64,000 bases of DNA from Crocinitomicaceae bacterium (GCA_002723085.1 PBNK01000026.1:8965-72964); one strand, 5' to 3'. Counted from the first letter of the stretch, positions 28,418-39,731 are shown. Notes: a model not told the origin generated them from the sequence alone. Translations and numbers: made by a program.

Positions 28418-31400
28418 TCAATTTTCTAATGAATTAAAGTACTCATTTACTTTATTTTTGTAATAAGGTTTCAAATTAGGAGGTATTGTTTTTAACAAGT
28501 CGACCTCTCTTTGCTTCAACCTCTGGTATTCTTCAAATTTATTATTAAAATTATTTTCATTTGTTTTAATACCTTCTTTAGATTCTCTTTCTTTTTGTTG
28601 ATCTTGTTCTTTTAGAGCTTTTTCTAATTCAAGTAATTTAATTTTAATTTCTTCTTGTCTCATTATAGAAGATAGATCAAAATCATTATTTATTATTTCT
28701 TCTTCTGTTTCTTCAATTTTTTCAATCATTTTATTAAGGCCATTTCCTTTTCCAGAACCATCTTTGTTTAGTTCTTGCGCTAGCTCCATTAATTGTTTTT
28801 TAATGGCAGCTTGTTCAGCAGCAAGCCTTCCAAGTTGTTCAAATGAAGATTTACCCCCACCTTTTTGTCCCCCTTTTTTATCACTTAACATTTTTTTCAT
28901 TTGTTCAATTTGTTTTTTTATTTGCTCAGCATTTTGAGATAAAGATTTGCCTGGGGTTTTTCCTTTACCCCCAGGTTTGTTGCATTGACCAGTCCCCGGC
29001 ATATTGTTTTGCATTTGTTTTAACACCTCACTTAATAAAAGAGCAAGTTCATTGGTGTGCATCATTACATTGTGTTGGTTTGATCCAGCAATATTTTTCT
29101 TTCTTTCGGTGATGTTTTTTATGCTGTAATTTAACGACCTTTTTATTTCTTGAACCTCTTTATTTAACATATTACTAATCATAATTTGACGCTTACCCAA
29201 AGCGTCAAGAGAGTCTTCTATTATTTTAACATCGTCTTTTAATTTTCTTTGACTTTGACCAACACCAATGTACCTTGGGTCTTGTGTCGACAAGGTTTTT
29301 AATGTTTTTAATAATTCCTCCTGCTCTAATGAAAAAGAAATAAGGTTCTCTAAAAGCTGACGCAGAGACTCTGCGTCTTCTTCTTTTTGGTTAGAAGAAT
29401 TAGACATTTTATTAAGAGATGAGGCTAATTTATCCATTTCTTCAGCCGCTTTTTTTTGACTTTCAGCCGCTTTTTTCCTTTTATTATTTTCTAATTCGCT
29501 CTCACTTTGATTCATTGCATCATTGATTTGGTTTTCCTGCTCTTCTTTATTTAATTCTTTAGGAGATTCAAGTTCCTCATTCATTTCATTTAGTTCCGAA
29601 AGCTCATTTTGTATTTCAAAGAATTTGTTTTGTAGATTTTCTTGTTCTTTAGTTAGATCAAATAAAGATTGTTTTTTATCATTAGTTTTTTCTTGTAAGT
29701 CTCTTTGTTCTCTACTAAGCTCCTCAAGTTGCTCAGCAATTTTTTCAGCTTTATTTTCAACCTCTAATCTTTTAAAATGTTCTAAGGACCTATCTAACTC
29801 TTTTAAAAGGTTATCTTGACTCATCTCCACGTCTTCCATTTTTTCTAAAAGCTCATCTTTATTCATTTCCTCCATAAGCCTATTCATTTCTTCATAAAGC
29901 TTTTTCATCTCTTCAGACATTAAGTTATCCATCATTTTTTCCAATTGCTTTTGTTTCTCTAAAATTTCTTTGCTTTTTTCCGATAGTTGAGCTTTTTTAG
30001 CCATCTCATTTTGTAGTTTTTTAAGGTTTTGAGTTAAAGCCTCCTGCTTTTTAAAAAAAGCTTCTAGTCGAGACTTATCATTCCAATTCATATCTTTTTT
30101 ACTTAATAGGTCGGCCTTTATATTTTTCAACTCCAGCTGTAAAGCCTCAGCTTCTTTTGAAAGGTTTGCAAAAGAGTTCTCCGTCTTTTCCCTTATTTTT
30201 TTATCAACTTCATTTTTCTCTTTAAAAGAAGGAACCTTTAATTTTTTTTCTGTAGAACGAAAGCTTTTAGGGCCATTAATTGCATCATTATCCCATACTT
30301 CAAAATAATAAGTGAAATCATCACCCGCTTCAAAATTAAGTGAAGTAAAATCAAAGTCATAATAAAAAGAAGTCGAGCGAAAAGAAGCTAAGGGAATATT
30401 AATGGATTTTTTATTAACCCCGATTTGATAATTAAAAGTTAATTTACTTATCCCATAATCATCTTTTATAGACCCATCAAAAAACCTTTGAAGCAGAAAA
30501 GATGAATCAAAAAACTCATTAACCGAAATACTTGGAAAAGCATCCCCTCTAAGTAAGAAATCATACATTGAAGTGTCAGAATGTTCAGAAAAAGAATTTT
30601 CGTTTGTTACTAAGAATTCCTGAGATTCCTTAGGAGTATATTTAAAAGAAAAAGAATTTTTATTATCACCACTAAATACAAAAGAAGAATCAGAAAAAAC
30701 AACCTGAAATGATGAAGTATTTTTTGTCTTAAAATTAAAATAAATTGAAGTCCCAAAAGGAATCACGAGACCACTAAAATCAGAGACAGTGTCATCAATT
30801 AACTCAGTATAGGTTGGATATGCTAAAACAGCATTGAAGCCCGAAAGAGAGGCTTTAGGAAGAAAAAAGACATCAAAATCTTTTGAATAATTGAATCCAT
30901 CAGAAATACGAAACGAAAAATCATTTTGAACGTTTTTGAATTTATATGTGAATTTTGTATCGTCAATTTTTATAGGGAATAATCTTTGACTATTTTTAAA
31001 AAGATATATTTCTTTAGGGGGCTCGCCAACAGTTTCAATAATAATATTTAAATCTTCATTTTCTAAAACACTCAATTTATTATTGTTATTAACAACAAAG
31101 CTGTAGGCCCTATCTGTCGCAAACGAGTCATTATAGTTAATCACCCTGTTTATTGGTTTAATTAAAAAATCAGGCCTTACAAACCCAATAAGAGAAAATA
31201 AGCCAAATAAAAAAACAAAAGCAAAAATGAAGTTTTTATTTCTTTTAAAAGAAATAGTTTCTGAAAGAGAAAAGACACTCAAATCTTTAGCTCTTTGTTG
31301 AATTGAGGCGGATAACAACAACAGCTTAGAATTTTCTTTTTCTTGATTTGAAAGTTGAAGAGTGTTTAAAAGTTTATCTCCAATTTCATTTAACTCCCCG

Positions 31401-31693
31401 CCAATAATTTTCGCAGCAGAAATATGATCTAAACGTCTAAATAATCCCAAATAACGAAAAAAAGGATTCACAAATAAAGAGACAAAAACAACAAAGAGAA
31501 TTAATAGACCCCCACAAAGCAACCCCAACCTAACATTTGTAGGAAAGAAAAAAAGAAATTCTAATCCCCCCACAAAACCCAATAAAACGATAGCATAACA
31601 AAAAAATAACAAACCACCCTTAACAGCCTGAATGGCGTGATACTTTTTAATAAATTTATTAAGTTGAAAGATTAAATTATCAAAAGAGTTCAT
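28418..31693 (-). CDS. Large membrane-anchored coiled-coil protein (DUF4175-like)
   Basis: It has N-terminal TM helices, a beta-rich middle part and a roughly 500-aa E/K/Q-rich coiled coil with Gly/Lys-rich patches. I used the ATG at 31693 rather than the TTG at 31750. Confidence 0.6.
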   Translation of the reverse strand: MNSFDNLIFQLNKFIKKYHAIQAVKGGLLFFCYAIVLLGFVGGLEFLFFFPTNVRLGLLCGGLLILFVVFVSLFVNPFFRYLGLFRRLDHISAAKIIGGELNEIGDKLLNTLQLSNQEKENSKLLLLSASIQQRAKDLSVFSLSETISFKRNKNFIFAFVFLFGLFSLIGFVRPDFLIKPINRVINYNDSFATDRAYSFVVNNNNKLSVLENEDLNIIIETVGEPPKEIYLFKNSQRLFPIKIDDTKFTYKFKNVQNDFSFRISDGFNYSKDFDVFFLPKASLSGFNAVLAYPTYTELIDDTVSDFSGLVIPFGTSIYFNFKTKNTSSFQVVFSDSSFVFSGDNKNSFSFKYTPKESQEFLVTNENSFSEHSDTSMYDFLLRGDAFPSISVNEFFDSSFLLQRFFDGSIKDDYGISKLTFNYQIGVNKKSINIPLASFRSTSFYYDFDFTSLNFEAGDDFTYYFEVWDNDAINGPKSFRSTEKKLKVPSFKEKNEVDKKIREKTENSFANLSKEAEALQLELKNIKADLLSKKDMNWNDKSRLEAFFKKQEALTQNLKKLQNEMAKKAQLSEKSKEILEKQKQLEKMMDNLMSEEMKKLYEEMNRLMEEMNKDELLEKMEDVEMSQDNLLKELDRSLEHFKRLEVENKAEKIAEQLEELSREQRDLQEKTNDKKQSLFDLTKEQENLQNKFFEIQNELSELNEMNEELESPKELNKEEQENQINDAMNQSESELENNKRKKAAESQKKAAEEMDKLASSLNKMSNSSNQKEEDAESLRQLLENLISFSLEQEELLKTLKTLSTQDPRYIGVGQSQRKLKDDVKIIEDSLDALGKRQIMISNMLNKEVQEIKRSLNYSIKNITERKKNIAGSNQHNVMMHTNELALLLSEVLKQMQNNMPGTGQCNKPGGKGKTPGKSLSQNAEQIKKQIEQMKKMLSDKKGGQKGGGKSSFEQLGRLAAEQAAIKKQLMELAQELNKDGSGKGNGLNKMIEKIEETEEEIINNDFDLSSIMRQEEIKIKLLELEKALKEQDQQKERESKEGIKTNENNFNNKFEEYQRLKQREVDLLKTIPPNLKPYYKNKVNEYFNSLEN

Positions 31694-31803
31694 GCTAATA
31701 CTATAGGAAATTAAAATTACATCAAAATCTTCTATTTGAGTTAAAACCAATCACAATAAATCTTAAAACAACCTAAACAGATAAAGAATTAAGCATATAA
31801 TCG

Positions 31804-34730: not shown

Positions 34731-36152
34731 CTAATCATGTGTTGTCAACTTTTTAATCATCCCTTGAAAAATAAAACTATGAAAGGGTAAAACTGAAAAC
34801 CAATACAATCTACCCAAAAGGCCAAGAGGTCTAAAAGTAGCTTTTTGATAAAGTTTGCCGTTTTTTATTTTAAATTCTAACCAAGCCTCTCCAGGAAGTT
34901 TCATCTCAGCAAATAAAAGAAGGCGCCCCTCTTCTTTGTTTGCATAAAGAACTCTCCAGAAGTCCAAAGCGTCTCCTGGATTAATTGAGTTATTGTTTGT
35001 TCTTCCTCTTCTAATTCCAACGCCACCAGAAAGCTTGTCTAAAAATCCTCTTATTGTCCATAGCCAGTTTCCGTAATACCAGCCATTTTCACCACCAATC
35101 GACCAAATTTTTTCAATACAGAGCGTTTTATTACTATATTTTTTTTCTCTAGAATCAATAAGGCAACCATATGAAGGAACTTCAATAAAGTCTGAAATAT
35201 TGATGTTCATTCCGCTGCTTACGTAAGCATCTTTCCAACTGGAAATTATCTCGTTATTCCTTATTTTACTAAAAGCTTTTTCAAGAGATTTTTTATAACT
35301 TAAAGGAGAAATACCTAATATTTCCTGAAGTTTTTTATCTCTACAGATAACTTCAATTTTCATGCTGTTAACTAGAGCGACTGCAAGTTTATAAGATGTT
35401 GAGGTTACAAAATACAACCAGTAAGAAGAAAGACGAGGAGTCATAACAGGAACGATTATAATTCTTCGTTTAAGGTTTCGTGTTTCAGCAAAACCTAATA
35501 GCATTTCTTTATATGATAATACATTTGGACCGCCAATGTCAAAGCTTTCGTTAAAAGTTTTGGAGTTGAATAGGGTTTTATTCAAAAAAAGTATGACATC
35601 TGAAACTCCGATAGGTTGACACTTTGTGTTTAACCATTTTGGAGTAATCATTACAGGGAGTTTCTCAACAATGTCTCTAATAATTTCAAAAGAAGCACTA
35701 CCAGAACCAATAATTATTCCCGCTCTTAGTGTAGTGCAATTATAGGTTCCTTTTCTTAGTTCTAGTTCCACATTTTTCCTTGAACCTAAATGTTTAGAAA
35801 GCTCATCATTATTGATTATTCCGCTCAAATAAACAACATGTTTAGCTTTTGTTTGATTTAGTTTTTTTCTAAAATTAATTGCTGATTCTAGTTCGAGTTT
35901 TTCGTAGTTTGACGAAGTAGACATAGAATGAACTAAGTAAAAAGCCCCATCAATGTCTAAAGGGATATTATTAAGGGTTTCAGACTTTAGTAAATCAAGC
36001 TCAATAATTGTAATATTATTTTTAATGGAATCAGGCGGATGAAAACGACTTTTATCTCTAACACAACAAATAACTTCATGTCCCGCATCCACTAGAACAG
36101 GCAAAAGCCGTTTACCGATATATCCTGTTGCTCCAGTTAGTAAAACTTTCAT
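34731..36152 (-). CDS. NAD(P)-binding SDR-family domain fused to a DUF2867-like C-terminal domain
   Basis: It has the Rossmann start VLLTGATGYIGKRL and a C-terminal region with the GENGWYY...WRV pattern typical of DUF2867. Confidence 0.75.
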   Translation of the reverse strand: MKVLLTGATGYIGKRLLPVLVDAGHEVICCVRDKSRFHPPDSIKNNITIIELDLLKSETLNNIPLDIDGAFYLVHSMSTSSNYEKLELESAINFRKKLNQTKAKHVVYLSGIINNDELSKHLGSRKNVELELRKGTYNCTTLRAGIIIGSGSASFEIIRDIVEKLPVMITPKWLNTKCQPIGVSDVILFLNKTLFNSKTFNESFDIGGPNVLSYKEMLLGFAETRNLKRRIIIVPVMTPRLSSYWLYFVTSTSYKLAVALVNSMKIEVICRDKKLQEILGISPLSYKKSLEKAFSKIRNNEIISSWKDAYVSSGMNINISDFIEVPSYGCLIDSREKKYSNKTLCIEKIWSIGGENGWYYGNWLWTIRGFLDKLSGGVGIRRGRTNNNSINPGDALDFWRVLYANKEEGRLLLFAEMKLPGEAWLEFKIKNGKLYQKATFRPLGLLGRLYWFSVLPFHSFIFQGMIKKLTTHD

Positions 36153-36160
36153 TTTTTAGT

Positions 36161-36793
36161 TTAAAAATCAGGAATGTTATTGTTTCTAACATAAGGAAAA
36201 GAATTTATTTTTCCCACCTTATAATAAGTGTTTAATCCAGAAATTCCCGCACAGGAGTATTTTTCTAAATCAAGTTGCCCAAGCTCATTAATAGAATGCT
36301 CAGGATAAATAACTTTTTTAACATTTCCTATAACCATTGAACAACCATTTGGCAACGGAACACTTTCTAGATGTTTTAATCCTATTTTTACTTTACTTTC
36401 CTTTACAAATGGAGCATAAAAGTCATCAATAAATTCTTTTTCTATTTTCATTCTATCAAATTCAGATTCGTCTGAAGTTAATTTTGCTGAGGTATAATGT
36501 GCTTTTTTAATGAAAGAATCAGAAACATGGTTTATAGTGTAAAAATTTGTTTGAAGAATATTTTTATATGTGTCTCTCGGGTTATTGGTTTGAGGGCGAA
36601 GAATGAATCCAAATTGAGCAGGATTTGACCCAAGATGAACAACAGATGAGAAAATAGCTAAATTATCAAACCCATCTTTCGACCTAGTGCCAATTAAGTT
36701 TGCCGGTTTAATTCCAGATAGAGAATTAATTAAGTTTAGTCTATATTTTCGATCTAAATTATCAATATCTGTAATGTTAAGTTTCATTTTCAT
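36161..36793 (-). CDS. Flavin reductase-like (FMN-binding split-barrel) protein
   Basis: The segment LINSLSGIKPANLIGT...NLAIFSSVVHLGSNP...ILRP resembles Bacteroidota flavin reductase family proteins. Its start overlaps the upstream gene by 17 nt. Confidence 0.65.
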   Translation of the reverse strand: MKMKLNITDIDNLDRKYRLNLINSLSGIKPANLIGTRSKDGFDNLAIFSSVVHLGSNPAQFGFILRPQTNNPRDTYKNILQTNFYTINHVSDSFIKKAHYTSAKLTSDESEFDRMKIEKEFIDDFYAPFVKESKVKIGLKHLESVPLPNGCSMVIGNVKKVIYPEHSINELGQLDLEKYSCAGISGLNTYYKVGKINSFPYVRNNNIPDF

Positions 36794-37784
36794 TGATTTT
36801 AGCTTTTAATTCTTTTTTACATTTTTTCCAAAAGGAAAAAAAAGAAGGATAATATCCTTTTTGTTCACAAATCCAATCTCTATTTTCTTCATTTCCTTTA
36901 TAATGCTTGTTTGTTGGATGCTCTTTGTAAAATAAGTTTTCAAAACTTATTATTTGGGCTAACTCTTGAAACTCACCTACAAAAAGCTTAATGTTTTTTA
37001 AATTGACTGAAAGGCTAATCGCAAAATCTAAGCAATTTTGATTAATTGGAAATTTTTCAAAAAAAGAAGGCTCAAGCAATAAAACCTTTTGAAAACCCTC
37101 ATTTTTATGCCAGTCAGGATCTAAATTATAATAATTAAACACTAAGGTTTTAATGTTCCGTATTTCAGGATCATTTAAACTTGGAAGAATACAATTTGTT
37201 TTTAAATCAGAAACAGGTTTGAGAATATTTGGGGTTGCCATTGAATAAAAATCAGGATATTCCACATCTAAAAAAGTTCCTTTTTGTCCACTGTTGAAAT
37301 ATTTATTAATGTTAGATTGATTTGCGTAGTATTTCTTATTGCTAAATGTACCCGAAACCCATTGCCAACTAAGGTGATTGCTTGCTATATCACCATCATA
37401 TAAGTTGCTATATAACCATTTTGCAGGGGTTAACCAGTGACATTTTGCTACGTTACAACAAACTGAAGCCACATACATTCTCATGTGGTTATGCATATAA
37501 CCAGTTGAATATAAAACTTTAATAGCTTCATCTACGGCATTTATTTTTGTTTCAGCATTTATAATTGCATCAGGAATTTTATGATTTTCTATATTTTGTT
37601 GAGGGTTCTTAAGATCTGTAAAAATTTGATTTTTTTTATTTACCCAAATCAACTGCCAATAATCTCTCCACGCAAGTTCTTGAATGATTTTTTCTATTTT
37701 ACACCAATCAATATTTAGAGATAATATATAATTTACAATTTGTTTTGTTGAAATCACACCTCTGGAAATATATGGACTTAACAT
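36777..37784 (-). CDS. Photolyase/cryptochrome-family protein with inverted topology (N-terminal FAD/catalytic domain, no N-terminal antenna domain; NewPHL-like)
   Basis: It begins directly with LSPYISRG, followed by ELAWRDYW, GYMHNHMRMYVAS and DGDIASNHLSWQWVSG, which are FAD_binding_7 hallmarks. About 150 extra residues follow at the C-terminus. Confidence 0.7.
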   Translation of the reverse strand: MLSPYISRGVISTKQIVNYILSLNIDWCKIEKIIQELAWRDYWQLIWVNKKNQIFTDLKNPQQNIENHKIPDAIINAETKINAVDEAIKVLYSTGYMHNHMRMYVASVCCNVAKCHWLTPAKWLYSNLYDGDIASNHLSWQWVSGTFSNKKYYANQSNINKYFNSGQKGTFLDVEYPDFYSMATPNILKPVSDLKTNCILPSLNDPEIRNIKTLVFNYYNLDPDWHKNEGFQKVLLLEPSFFEKFPINQNCLDFAISLSVNLKNIKLFVGEFQELAQIISFENLFYKEHPTNKHYKGNEENRDWICEQKGYYPSFFSFWKKCKKELKAKINENET

Positions 37785-37882
37785 AGTGACAGCACCATTT
37801 TTATAATTTCTTGTTGCGGCATACTTTGAAGGATTAATTTTTTTAATCCGTAATAAAATTTGTTCTATTTCAGAAGGAAAAT

Positions 37883-38152
37883 CTATCGCTTAGAAATTTT
37901 ATTGTTGGAGATACTCTTTTGTCTAGAACATTTGAATCTTTTTATTTCAGAGCTTCTTTTTTTTAGATGTTTTTTACTGACACCGCTATTAACTCTTTTT
38001 CTCCAAAGTTTAAATGACTTTTCTTTTAACTCTTTTCTCATGAGAGAAATTACATCTTTTTCGGTGTAACCAAACTGAAATCGAATGGCCTCAAAAGGTG
38101 TGCGATCTTCCCAAGCCATTTCAATAATTCTATCAATGGAACTATAATTCAT
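37883..38152 (-). CDS. TIGR03643 (DUF2805) family small protein, a family typically linked to photolyase genes
   Basis: The 89-aa product contains DRIIEMAWEDRTPFEAIRFQFG..EKDVI.LMR.ELK..SFKLWRKRV, the family core as I recall it. Confidence 0.75.
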   Translation of the reverse strand: MNYSSIDRIIEMAWEDRTPFEAIRFQFGYTEKDVISLMRKELKEKSFKLWRKRVNSGVSKKHLKKRSSEIKRFKCSRQKSISNNKISKR

Positions 38153-38421
38153 TTCATAAAATTAAAGCTCTAAACAACAATTAGGAATTTTGTTAATCGT
38201 TAATGTTGATATTACTTATTTTTTAAACCATTAATTTCCCCAGTTTAAATATATAGGAATGAAAAAGGTTCCTAAAACACAAATTTTGTAAGCAAATGAT
38301 CAGGATTATCGTAGCGGCCACAGCATCCTAATCTTTTACATCAAGAACGCTGAAGCGAGCTATAATCGTTGAATATACAACTAAAACGGCTATTATTTTT
38401 ATACATTATTCTCTGTAGTTT

Positions 38422-39254: not shown

Positions 39255-39731
39255 TTAATAAGAATACTTAACAGCATGCCATATCGCAACAAATTCTTCA
39301 ATAGTCACATAACCATCAATTGTAAACTGAATATCACTAGAATAGCTGGAATTTCCAGTGTATACCTTTCCACTTTTTATTGTTGCTATAACATCACTGC
39401 TATAAGACGAAGTTCCCTTGTATATTTTGCTGTCTTTTATGGTCATTACAATATCACTACTATAAGATGAAGTTCCTTTGTACACTTTTCCATCTGAAAT
39501 ATTATAAAGTACATCACTCGAATAAGAGCTCGTGCCTTTATAAACTTTTTTGCCACTTACCTTGCAAATTACATCTGATGAATAACTAGATGTTTTTTTA
39601 TATACTTTATCGTTATTTAGATTACAAATTACATCACTCGAATATGTACTTGTGCCTTTATAAACCTTAGTCTGTGCATTAGCAAAACTCACGGAAATTG
39701 TCAATATTGCTATTAAAATAATCTGTTTCAT
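39255..39731 (-). CDS. Exported tandem-repeat protein (six 20-aa K[VI]YKGTSSYSSD[VI] repeats)
   Basis: A signal peptide (SFANAQ) is followed by 6 consecutive 20-aa repeats and a unique 17-aa tail. The repeats differ at synonymous sites, which supports a real, selected coding frame. Confidence 0.7.
   Translation of the reverse strand: MKQIILIAILTISVSFANAQTKVYKGTSTYSSDVICNLNNDKVYKKTSSYSSDVICKVSGKKVYKGTSSYSSDVLYNISDGKVYKGTSSYSSDIVMTIKDSKIYKGTSSYSSDVIATIKSGKVYTGNSSYSSDIQFTIDGYVTIEEFVAIWHAVKYSY
39309..39668 (-). repeat. Six tandem 60-nt (20-codon) coding repeats
   Basis: The units are KVYKGTSTYSSDVICNLNND / KVYKKTSSYSSDVICKVSGK / KVYKGTSSYSSDVLYNISDG / KVYKGTSSYSSDIVMTIKDS / KIYKGTSSYSSDVIATIKSG / KVYTGNSSYSSDIQFTIDGY. 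Ser codons switch between AGY and TCN among units. Confidence 0.85.

Follow-up and report, generated by a model that had tools for sequence, protein, structure and literature searches.

A 64,000-nucleotide (nt) stretch of DNA from a Crocinitomicaceae bacterium (GCA_002723085.1, PBNK01000026.1:8965-72964), here called the window, holds a block of four tightly packed genes built around a photolyase gene of the NewPHL type. The block reads, in the direction of transcription, as a gene for a DUF2805/TIGR03643 protein, the photolyase gene, a gene for a flavin-reductase-like protein (FlavRed), and a gene for a short-chain dehydrogenase/reductase (SDR) with a C-terminal DUF2867 domain (SDR-DUF2867) (Table 1). 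A first-pass annotation, made from the sequence alone, had read these four genes as one unit. The explanation that we favor, at a probability of about 0.6, is that the first three genes form a photoreactivation cassette that lies directly upstream of a conserved SDR-DUF2867 gene, and that only these three belong together. All four protein families are already known. What appears to be new, on the level of comparative genomics, is the conserved cluster in the Bacteroidota, the clade of flavin-reductase-like proteins bound to photolyase genes, and the use of ATA, ATC, and ATT as NewPHL start codons. The open reading frame (ORF) calls agreed with the annotation in placing all four genes on the minus strand, and matches to Pfam and NCBIfam gave the same protein families.

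Table 1. Features of the gene block, in window coordinates (aa, amino acids)
Feature	Coordinates	Strand	Remarks
DUF2805/TIGR03643 gene	37883..38152	-	89 aa; first gene of the cassette
NewPHL gene, revised 5' end	36777..37886	-	369 codons; ATA start at 37886-37884
ATAG junction	37883..37886	-	4-nt overlap of the NewPHL ATA start and the DUF2805 TAG stop (37885-37883)
FlavRed gene	36161..36793	-	210 aa; third gene of the cassette; alternative start ATG at 36787
Overlap of NewPHL end and FlavRed start	36777..36793	-	17 nt
SDR-DUF2867 gene	34731..36152	-	473 aa; YbjT-like atypical SDR; neighboring backbone gene
Intergenic region upstream of the DUF2805 gene	38153..38421	-	Presumed promoter region

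We retrieved 80 species-level genome loci with a NewPHL gene, each with 10-kb flanks, and probed them with the proteins of the window and by de novo clustering of ORFs. Flanks were long enough for 71 of these loci to be evaluated. A DUF2805 gene lay directly upstream of NewPHL and on the same strand at 36 of the 71 loci, and FlavRed was in the cluster at 18. The cluster included a photolyase gene of the DPRP family (FeS-BCP type) at 50 loci and another two-domain photolyase-family gene at 15. The typical order was DUF2805, NewPHL, optionally the other photolyase-family gene, optionally FlavRed, and then the DPRP photolyase. FlavRed went with DUF2805: the latter was present at 16 of the 18 loci with FlavRed versus 20 of the 53 without it (odds ratio, 13; P = 2e-4, with phylogeny ignored). 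We found the three-gene cassette in Cytophagales (Algoriphagus, Ekhidna, and Marinoscillum), in Flavobacteriales (Cellulophaga, Arenibacter, and Maribacter), and in metagenome-assembled genomes (MAGs) of other Bacteroidota. These neighborhoods show that DUF2805, NewPHL, and FlavRed recur in the same order and on the same strand across orders of the Bacteroidota, and that a DPRP photolyase gene usually, and another photolyase-family gene sometimes, extends the cassette. The first-pass annotation had called both DUF2805 and SDR-DUF2867 known neighbors of photolyase genes and had proposed that the co-occurrence of both, and of flavin reductases, with NewPHL be checked across the Bacteroidota. Such co-occurrence was found for DUF2805 and FlavRed but not for SDR-DUF2867, which was present anywhere within 10 kb of NewPHL at only 2 of the 71 loci.

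The same association was visible from the side of the reductase. FlavRed alone was used to find 80 metagenome loci (52 to 74% identity), 60 of which have at least 1.5 kb of upstream sequence. At 46 of these 60, the gene immediately upstream of FlavRed was NewPHL (17 loci), another photolyase-family gene (22 loci), or DUF2805 (7 loci). Fifty of the 80 loci fell into one sequence cluster with the FlavRed of the window (57 to 73% identity to the window protein). Within that cluster, FlavRed was linked to photolyase or DUF2805 genes at 46 loci and was demonstrably alone at none; the remaining 4 contigs were too short to judge. Gene order thus shows that this clade occurs almost only beside photolyase or DUF2805 genes. 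FlavRed was, however, not particular to NewPHL. It equally often followed a canonical two-domain photolyase-family gene, preceded a DPRP photolyase gene, or followed DUF2805 alone. Because FlavRed follows several photolyase classes as well as DUF2805 alone, its partner is probably not NewPHL specifically. The annotation had described FlavRed as the partner of a photolyase that lacks an antenna domain; it is a recurrent partner, but of several photolyase classes.

A second family of PF01613 proteins, of 160 aa, also occurs in these clusters; in pairwise comparison, it shows no similarity to FlavRed (E = 0.98). It adjoins NewPHL at two loci (L064, 9169-9648, and L074, 9516-9998; L and P numbers are our identifiers) and stands in tandem with FlavRed at three others (L148, L155, and L156). 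In L148 and L156, the tandem pair has a DPRP photolyase gene beside it; the L155 sequence is not long enough to reveal the downstream gene. Since two dissimilar PF01613 families are present in photolyase clusters, the gene neighborhoods show that flavin-reductase-like genes were drawn into them more than once.

The fourth gene behaved differently. Its protein matches NAD_binding_10, NmrA, and Epimerase and has a C-terminal DUF2867 domain (103.5 bits), and the translation includes a GATGYIG motif. This two-domain architecture is shared with E. coli proteins of the YbjT type, but here the gene is merely adjacent to the cassette. The protein is 72 to 77% identical to proteins of Flavobacteriales, Crocinitomicaceae, Bacteroidales, and Marinilabiliales, which their sources label "YbjT (DUF2867 family)", and identity at this level across orders points to a general role. 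A gene for it was absent from all 80 loci centered on FlavRed. There was no photolyase gene near SDR-DUF2867 in four other contexts, among them Saonia flava, a Crocinitomicaceae MAG, and Flavobacterium faecale, in each of which a span of 8 kb was covered. The fourth context is a relative with 86% identity (L161). It has the same genes downstream of the SDR gene as the window (esterase, PaaD-like, coproporphyrinogen oxidase, and PTPS), but upstream it has a PMT_2 (glycosyltransferase-like) gene in the place of the cassette, overlapping the SDR start by 4 nt, and no photolyase. DNA homology between the window and this relative runs from 26733 and ends exactly at 36152, the start codon of the SDR gene. 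On the other side, the window and a 97%-identical strain (L163) cease to be homologous at 38128, within the 5' part of the DUF2805 gene, so that the region from 38153 to 38421 is not shared; upstream of 38128, that strain has a CMAS-like methyltransferase gene in place of the GDSL lipase gene of the window. Since homology breaks at both 36152 and 38128, the three-gene cassette lies, in these comparisons, between two synteny breakpoints. Synteny shows SDR-DUF2867 to be a flanking backbone gene and not a member of the cassette.

These results bear directly on the earlier reading, that all four genes are one unit that supplies, re-reduces, or processes a flavin or deazaflavin chromophore of the antenna-less photolyase. 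Tight packing on one strand speaks for such a unit, as does the order NewPHL-FlavRed-SDR, which is kept in an 85% relative and in 97 to 99% strains but not beyond that narrow clade. SDR-DUF2867 also lies near NewPHL at two other loci (L052 and L057), in arrangements that differ from that of the window. Yet the number of such loci that we would expect by chance is about 0.45 across the 80 loci fetched (P of about 0.08, by our own estimate), and the excess is not significant. Together with its absence from the FlavRed loci, its neighbors in other genomes, the breakpoint at its start codon, and its spread across orders, this means that the synteny data largely refute a conserved four-gene unit, which we regard as quite improbable. 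A looser functional tie of SDR-DUF2867 to the cassette may still exist.

The photolyase, which had been described as "inverted", is a NewPHL protein. Members of this family, studied in Dinoroseobacter shibae and Methylobacterium mesophilicum, begin with the FAD-binding catalytic domain and end with a "Z" domain of about 150 aa; they carry out light-driven repair of cyclobutane pyrimidine dimers (CPDs) in single-stranded DNA only, and flavin adenine dinucleotide (FAD) is their only chromophore (Emmerich et al. 2020, PMC7736829). The window protein has the same domain order. The Pfam domain FAD_binding_7 matches its N terminus (residues 34 to 170 of the shorter ORF discussed below), and the N-terminal 180 residues of a profile of the family match residues 225 to 395, in the catalytic domain, of the class I photolyases 1TEZ and 1OWL. 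The revised N terminus leaves no space for a preceding alpha/beta antenna domain. A region from about residue 215 to residue 370 is conserved among homologues and corresponds to the Z domain. An AlphaFold2 (AF2) model (predicted TM score [pTM], 0.77) has a helical N-terminal domain and then a beta-alpha-beta C-terminal domain, with a predicted local distance difference test score (pLDDT) of about 90, and the top Foldseek matches to the model were photolyases and cryptochromes. No NewPHL structure was among the PDB entries in our profile search. The closest species-level genome match to the protein, at 67% identity, is from an uncultured Flavobacteriales MAG, and the 64-kb window contains no other photolyase-family gene.

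Individual residues support the same assignment. The CPD-repair residues conserved in the family (a wedge of Glu and Trp, an Asn for the 3' pyrimidine, and an Asn close to N5 of FAD) are represented by E71, W74, N134, N171, and W177, all of which except E71 are invariant among 15 sequences. The spacing of E71, W74, N134, and W177 equals that of E81, W84, N151, and W194 in the D. shibae protein (DsNewPHL), as read from the published residue numbers rather than from a direct alignment (PMC7736829). W175 and W152, also invariant, are 23 residues apart, as are the proximal and medial tryptophans (Trp) W192 and W169 of DsNewPHL, and W82 corresponds to W99, its proposed alternative distal Trp. In the Z domain, for which a single conserved Trp and a GFF motif are reported, W260 is invariant but the motif is S349-F350-F351 (SFF) in all 15 Bacteroidota sequences. 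The window protein differs from the published ones in coming from the Bacteroidota, in having SFF rather than the reported GFF, and in its ATA start codon, which overlaps the stop codon of the upstream gene (PMC7736829).

This start codon changes the shape of the block. The mechanical ORF call for NewPHL was 36777-37784, with an ATG start at 37784, which left a 98-nt gap between the DUF2805 and photolyase genes. That gap, which the annotation had reported as well, is coding sequence, as judged from the alignment of homologues, the open frame, and the pattern of substitutions; it was an artifact of the choice of start codon. NewPHL homologues of 362 to 376 aa align over 35 additional residues 5' of the ATG at 37784 and span 97 to 100% of the extended translation. 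Within the extension are conserved, nearly invariant residues of the FAD site (Y23, R27, N28, G32, and T35). The frame is open from the TAA at 37892-37890 to the ATG at 37784 and has no earlier ATG, GTG, or TTG, and the codon that aligns with the Met of the homologues is the ATA at 37886-37884. Compared with strain L163, the 102 nt from the ATA to the ATG have six substitutions. In the photolyase frame, five of these are synonymous and one changes Y to F; in either of the other frames, none is synonymous and five are nonsynonymous. Because the stretch is coding and the ATA aligns with Met, the comparisons show that the gene begins at this ATA, which overlaps the DUF2805 stop codon TAG.

The same pattern was found in other genomes. 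The 5' end of NewPHL could be judged at 115 loci, of which 36, about a third, lack a canonical start; at 35 of the 36, the aligned codon is ATA (28 loci), ATC (4 loci), or ATT (3 loci). An upstream DUF2805 gene is missing from 14 of these 35. Where DUF2805 is upstream, the aligned start codon overlaps its stop codon as ATAG or ATAA, or as the variant ATGA at some loci; the junctions cgATAg and cgATAa recur at many loci, and cgATGa occurs at some. ATA, ATC, or ATT thus appears to be the start codon of roughly one NewPHL gene in three. Our literature search for AUA start codons in Bacteroidetes yielded nothing specific. Automatic gene calls, including public ones (P0001 and P0002), shorten NewPHL by about 35 residues. 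Since the lost residues include those of the FAD site, the corrected start matters both for annotation and for the expression of these proteins.

If the ribosome shifted frame by -1 near the end of the DUF2805 gene, a DUF2805-NewPHL fusion would be made and no start codon would be needed at the ATA. The photolyase frame is indeed the -1 frame of DUF2805, NewPHL lacks a canonical start, and at many loci a run of the form A AAA C precedes the stop codon. But the A run is broken at some loci (tcG AAA in L014 and tcC AAA in L036), and the 14 loci with ATA, ATC, or ATT that have no upstream DUF2805 gene show the same lack of a canonical start. In the window, an in-frame TAA lies just two codons 5' of the ATA, and no homologues of fusion length were found among the best 120 matches. 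Because the A run is not conserved and the start-less pattern occurs without an upstream DUF2805 gene, we rejected the programmed frameshift as very unlikely.

With the ATA start, the spacing of the block is -4, -17, and +8 nt; the second value becomes -11 nt if FlavRed begins at its second ATG. The 17-nt overlap of NewPHL and FlavRed and the 8-nt gap between FlavRed and the SDR gene are as first described. In 44 other valid adjacent pairs, the spacing of NewPHL and FlavRed ranged from -62 to +108 nt and was mostly less than 40 nt. Such tight packing makes it likely that translation of the cassette genes is coupled. Judging only from the spacing, all four genes in the window are probably on one transcript.

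The flavin-reductase-like protein matches Flavin_Reduct (PF01613) at 7.8e-13 and 49.2 bits (cutoff, 27). Labels such as "RutF" that sources attach to its homologues are generic. The nearest solved structure is 3FGE, which matches over the full length at E = 7e-49, followed by 3BPK, the flavoredoxin 2D5M, and NbaA (4Z85). 3FGE is a structural genomics entry named "putative flavin reductase with split barrel domain", a name that carries no function. Proteins of the PF01613 family are NAD(P)H:flavin reductases or flavin mononucleotide (FMN) electron carriers. In two-component flavin systems, a PF01613 reductase such as HpaC gives reduced flavin to a partner enzyme. FlavRed likewise is a small PF01613 protein beside proteins that depend on reduced flavin. 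In contrast to HpaC-type systems, the proposed partners are photolyases rather than monooxygenases, and FlavRed matches no curated equivalog. Two apparent fusions of NewPHL with FlavRed were set aside. The one at L153 was dismissed because a stop codon is present, and the one at L173 (221-1954) was rejected as unreliable because the in-frame read-through follows a run of eight A's on a scaffold with Ns; a close relative of L173 has a stop between the two genes, and the fusion may be an assembly or indel artifact.

The DUF2805 protein matches PF10985 at 2.6e-34 and 117.8 bits (cutoff, 22.5) and TIGR03643 at 112.7 bits (cutoff, 66.55). Its N-terminal half is helical and its tail is rich in Lys and Arg; across 20 aligned orthologues, mean column identity is 72%. 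A single-sequence AF2 model was all helical with a pLDDT of 67, which is low confidence. A Foldseek search of the PDB with this model gave no match below an E value of 4.8, and the PDB matches from sequence and profile searches were all at chance level. Because the protein is extremely conserved and has a basic tail, its sequence suggests nucleic acid binding.

How the cassette would work is a tentative part of our reading, and we hold it with much less confidence than the grouping of the genes. FlavRed would play the reductase part in a kind of two-component flavin system, in which the photolyases of the cluster would be the half that uses flavin. It would take NAD(P)H and flavin and pass reducing equivalents or reduced flavin to these photolyases, and the photolyase FAD would be kept, or loaded, as FADH- without reliance on photoreduction, which is slow in NewPHL. 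The DUF2805 protein would most likely have an accessory or regulatory role in which it binds nucleic acid. Photolyase synthesis would be held low, and tied to DUF2805 translation, by the weak ATA start and its coupling to the upstream stop codon. NewPHL is photoreduced at a rate 18- to 30-fold below that of a class II photolyase, and its Trp triad is incomplete, with two Trp conserved (PMC7736829). Because NewPHL photoreduces slowly and has an incomplete triad, a reductase for the photolyase is plausible. A bolder version of this proposal is that the FlavRed clade is a dedicated "dark activase", which would reduce or load FAD with NAD(P)H for NewPHL and the photolyases clustered with it, while DUF2805 would serve as a nucleic acid adaptor and the AUA, AUC, or AUU codon would set dosage. 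We consider this version speculative and rather unlikely as a whole.

The main rival is that FlavRed and the photolyases are needed simultaneously and are merely coregulated. FlavRed would then be a general enzyme of light or oxidative stress, such as a quinone, nitro, or free-flavin reductase, that limits photosensitized damage. This is a real possibility, which we rate about as highly as the functional part of our own reading. It would explain why FlavRed is found after photolyase genes of several classes or after DUF2805 alone, and why three quarters of NewPHL clusters do without it. The structural relatives of FlavRed that have functional names include a nitroreductase and a flavoredoxin, and other genes of stress and repair (SRAP, DUF2452, CIA30, and small SDRs) recur near the clusters. 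However, the linkage of the window's FlavRed clade, with 46 loci linked, none alone, and 4 that could not be evaluated, is tighter than would be expected of a general stress enzyme, and these clusters also recruited a second PF01613 family, unrelated to the first. Another alternative makes DUF2805 and FlavRed a regulatory pair, in which FlavRed, as a flavoprotein, would be the sensor of light or redox state, and DUF2805, as a basic and helical protein, would control the photolyase operon by binding DNA. The strong co-occurrence of the two genes fits this model, as do their persistence as an adjacent pair with no photolyase gene between or near them and the small size, helical character, and Lys/Arg-rich tail of DUF2805. 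But no similarity between DUF2805 and known DNA-binding regulators was detected, the functions known for PF01613 proteins are reduction and electron transfer rather than sensing, and half of the DUF2805-NewPHL clusters have no FlavRed. We regard a regulatory pair as improbable.

Several further observations weigh against the three-gene cassette or the function that we propose for it. It is synteny alone that ties FlavRed to the photolyases. Only about one NewPHL cluster in four includes FlavRed, which is therefore dispensable for NewPHL function in most species. Copies of FlavRed that stand alone do exist, in other, related sequence clusters (53 to 58% identity), and at L087, L089, L096, L100, and L144 an adjacent DUF2805-FlavRed pair has no photolyase gene between its members or for several kilobases around it. 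FlavRed had no NCBIfam match at an E value of 0.01 or better and so no match to a curated reductase equivalog such as RutF or HpaC. E. coli lacks this partner, yet NewPHL that had been purified from it under anaerobic conditions was fully reduced already (PMC7736829). The exact Bacteroidota -7 motif TAnnTTTG is absent from the minus strand both in the region 38153-38421 and within the block, and matches to sigma-70-type promoters and terminator-like sequences were no more frequent than in shuffled sequence.

Other genes recur beside these clusters. DUF2452 genes lie directly upstream of DUF2805 in Flavobacteriaceae (L065, L067, L072, L075, and L076), a gene for an SOS-response-associated peptidase (SRAP) lies upstream of NewPHL in Arenibacter (L033, L039, L042, and L050), and CIA30-domain genes lie downstream at several Cytophagales and Flavobacteriales loci (L009, L017, L027, L052, and L068). 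In Proteobacteria, photolyase clusters induced by light or stress carry accessory SDRs, methyltransferases similar to cyclopropane fatty acid synthase, and DUF proteins. The Bacteroidota clusters have in common with these the presence of poorly understood accessory genes, in that DUF2452 genes, small SDR genes, and a CMAS-like methyltransferase gene lie beside them. The core is different: DUF2805, NewPHL, FlavRed, another photolyase-family gene, and the DPRP photolyase. The downstream genes at L089 and L100 match those of Algoriphagus loci in which NewPHL lies between DUF2805 and FlavRed, as if NewPHL had been deleted; L098 has these same downstream genes, and its DUF2805 is just a tblastn match and not an ATG-initiated ORF.

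A few features of the window itself deserve mention. It matches a TARA Oceans scaffold from a marine metagenome, and proteins identical to its own are found on several contigs. Its GC content is about 31%, and a gene neighboring the block encodes a type IX secretion system (T9SS) sorting domain. Together, these features suggest a marine bacterium of the Flavobacteriales. An Rfam search of the window matched no families. A two-codon mini-ORF (ATG AAA TGA) at 38150-38157 overlaps the ATG of the DUF2805 gene (atgaaATGA) and may be due to chance. An inverted repeat of 9 bp, GATTAGGAT ... ATCCTGATC, was spotted by eye between the GDSL lipase and DUF2805 genes (minus strand, 38298-38333); its loop is 18 nt long, and it has no clear run of T's. 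Positions 39255-39731 encode a 158-aa "6-fold beta flower" protein (PF21786) with repeats of the form KVYKGTSSYSSDV. An ORF of 1,110 aa at 28418-31750 has long Glu/Lys-rich, coiled-coil-like stretches; its position is kept in the 86% relative by a 1,094-aa gene with no Pfam match.

The annotation had stated that, to its knowledge, no function was described for this combination of genes. Our full-text searches, which also covered DUF2867, returned no paper that describes an association of DUF2805, flavin-reductase-like proteins, and photolyases. In its main text, the NewPHL paper reports neither a gene neighborhood analysis nor partner proteins (PMC7736829). The gene neighborhoods show that the SDR-DUF2867 protein of the window should not be taken for a photolyase accessory.

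Photolyases are active only when their FAD is fully reduced, and in cells this reduction is usually ascribed to photoreduction through the Trp chain. A clade of reductase-like proteins bound to photolyase genes, and a second family recruited to the same clusters, are a concrete candidate for an enzymatic route to FAD reduction. If FlavRed were indeed a "dark activase", it would be a genetic answer to how living cells keep the photolyase flavin reduced where the Trp chain is poor or can be dispensed with.

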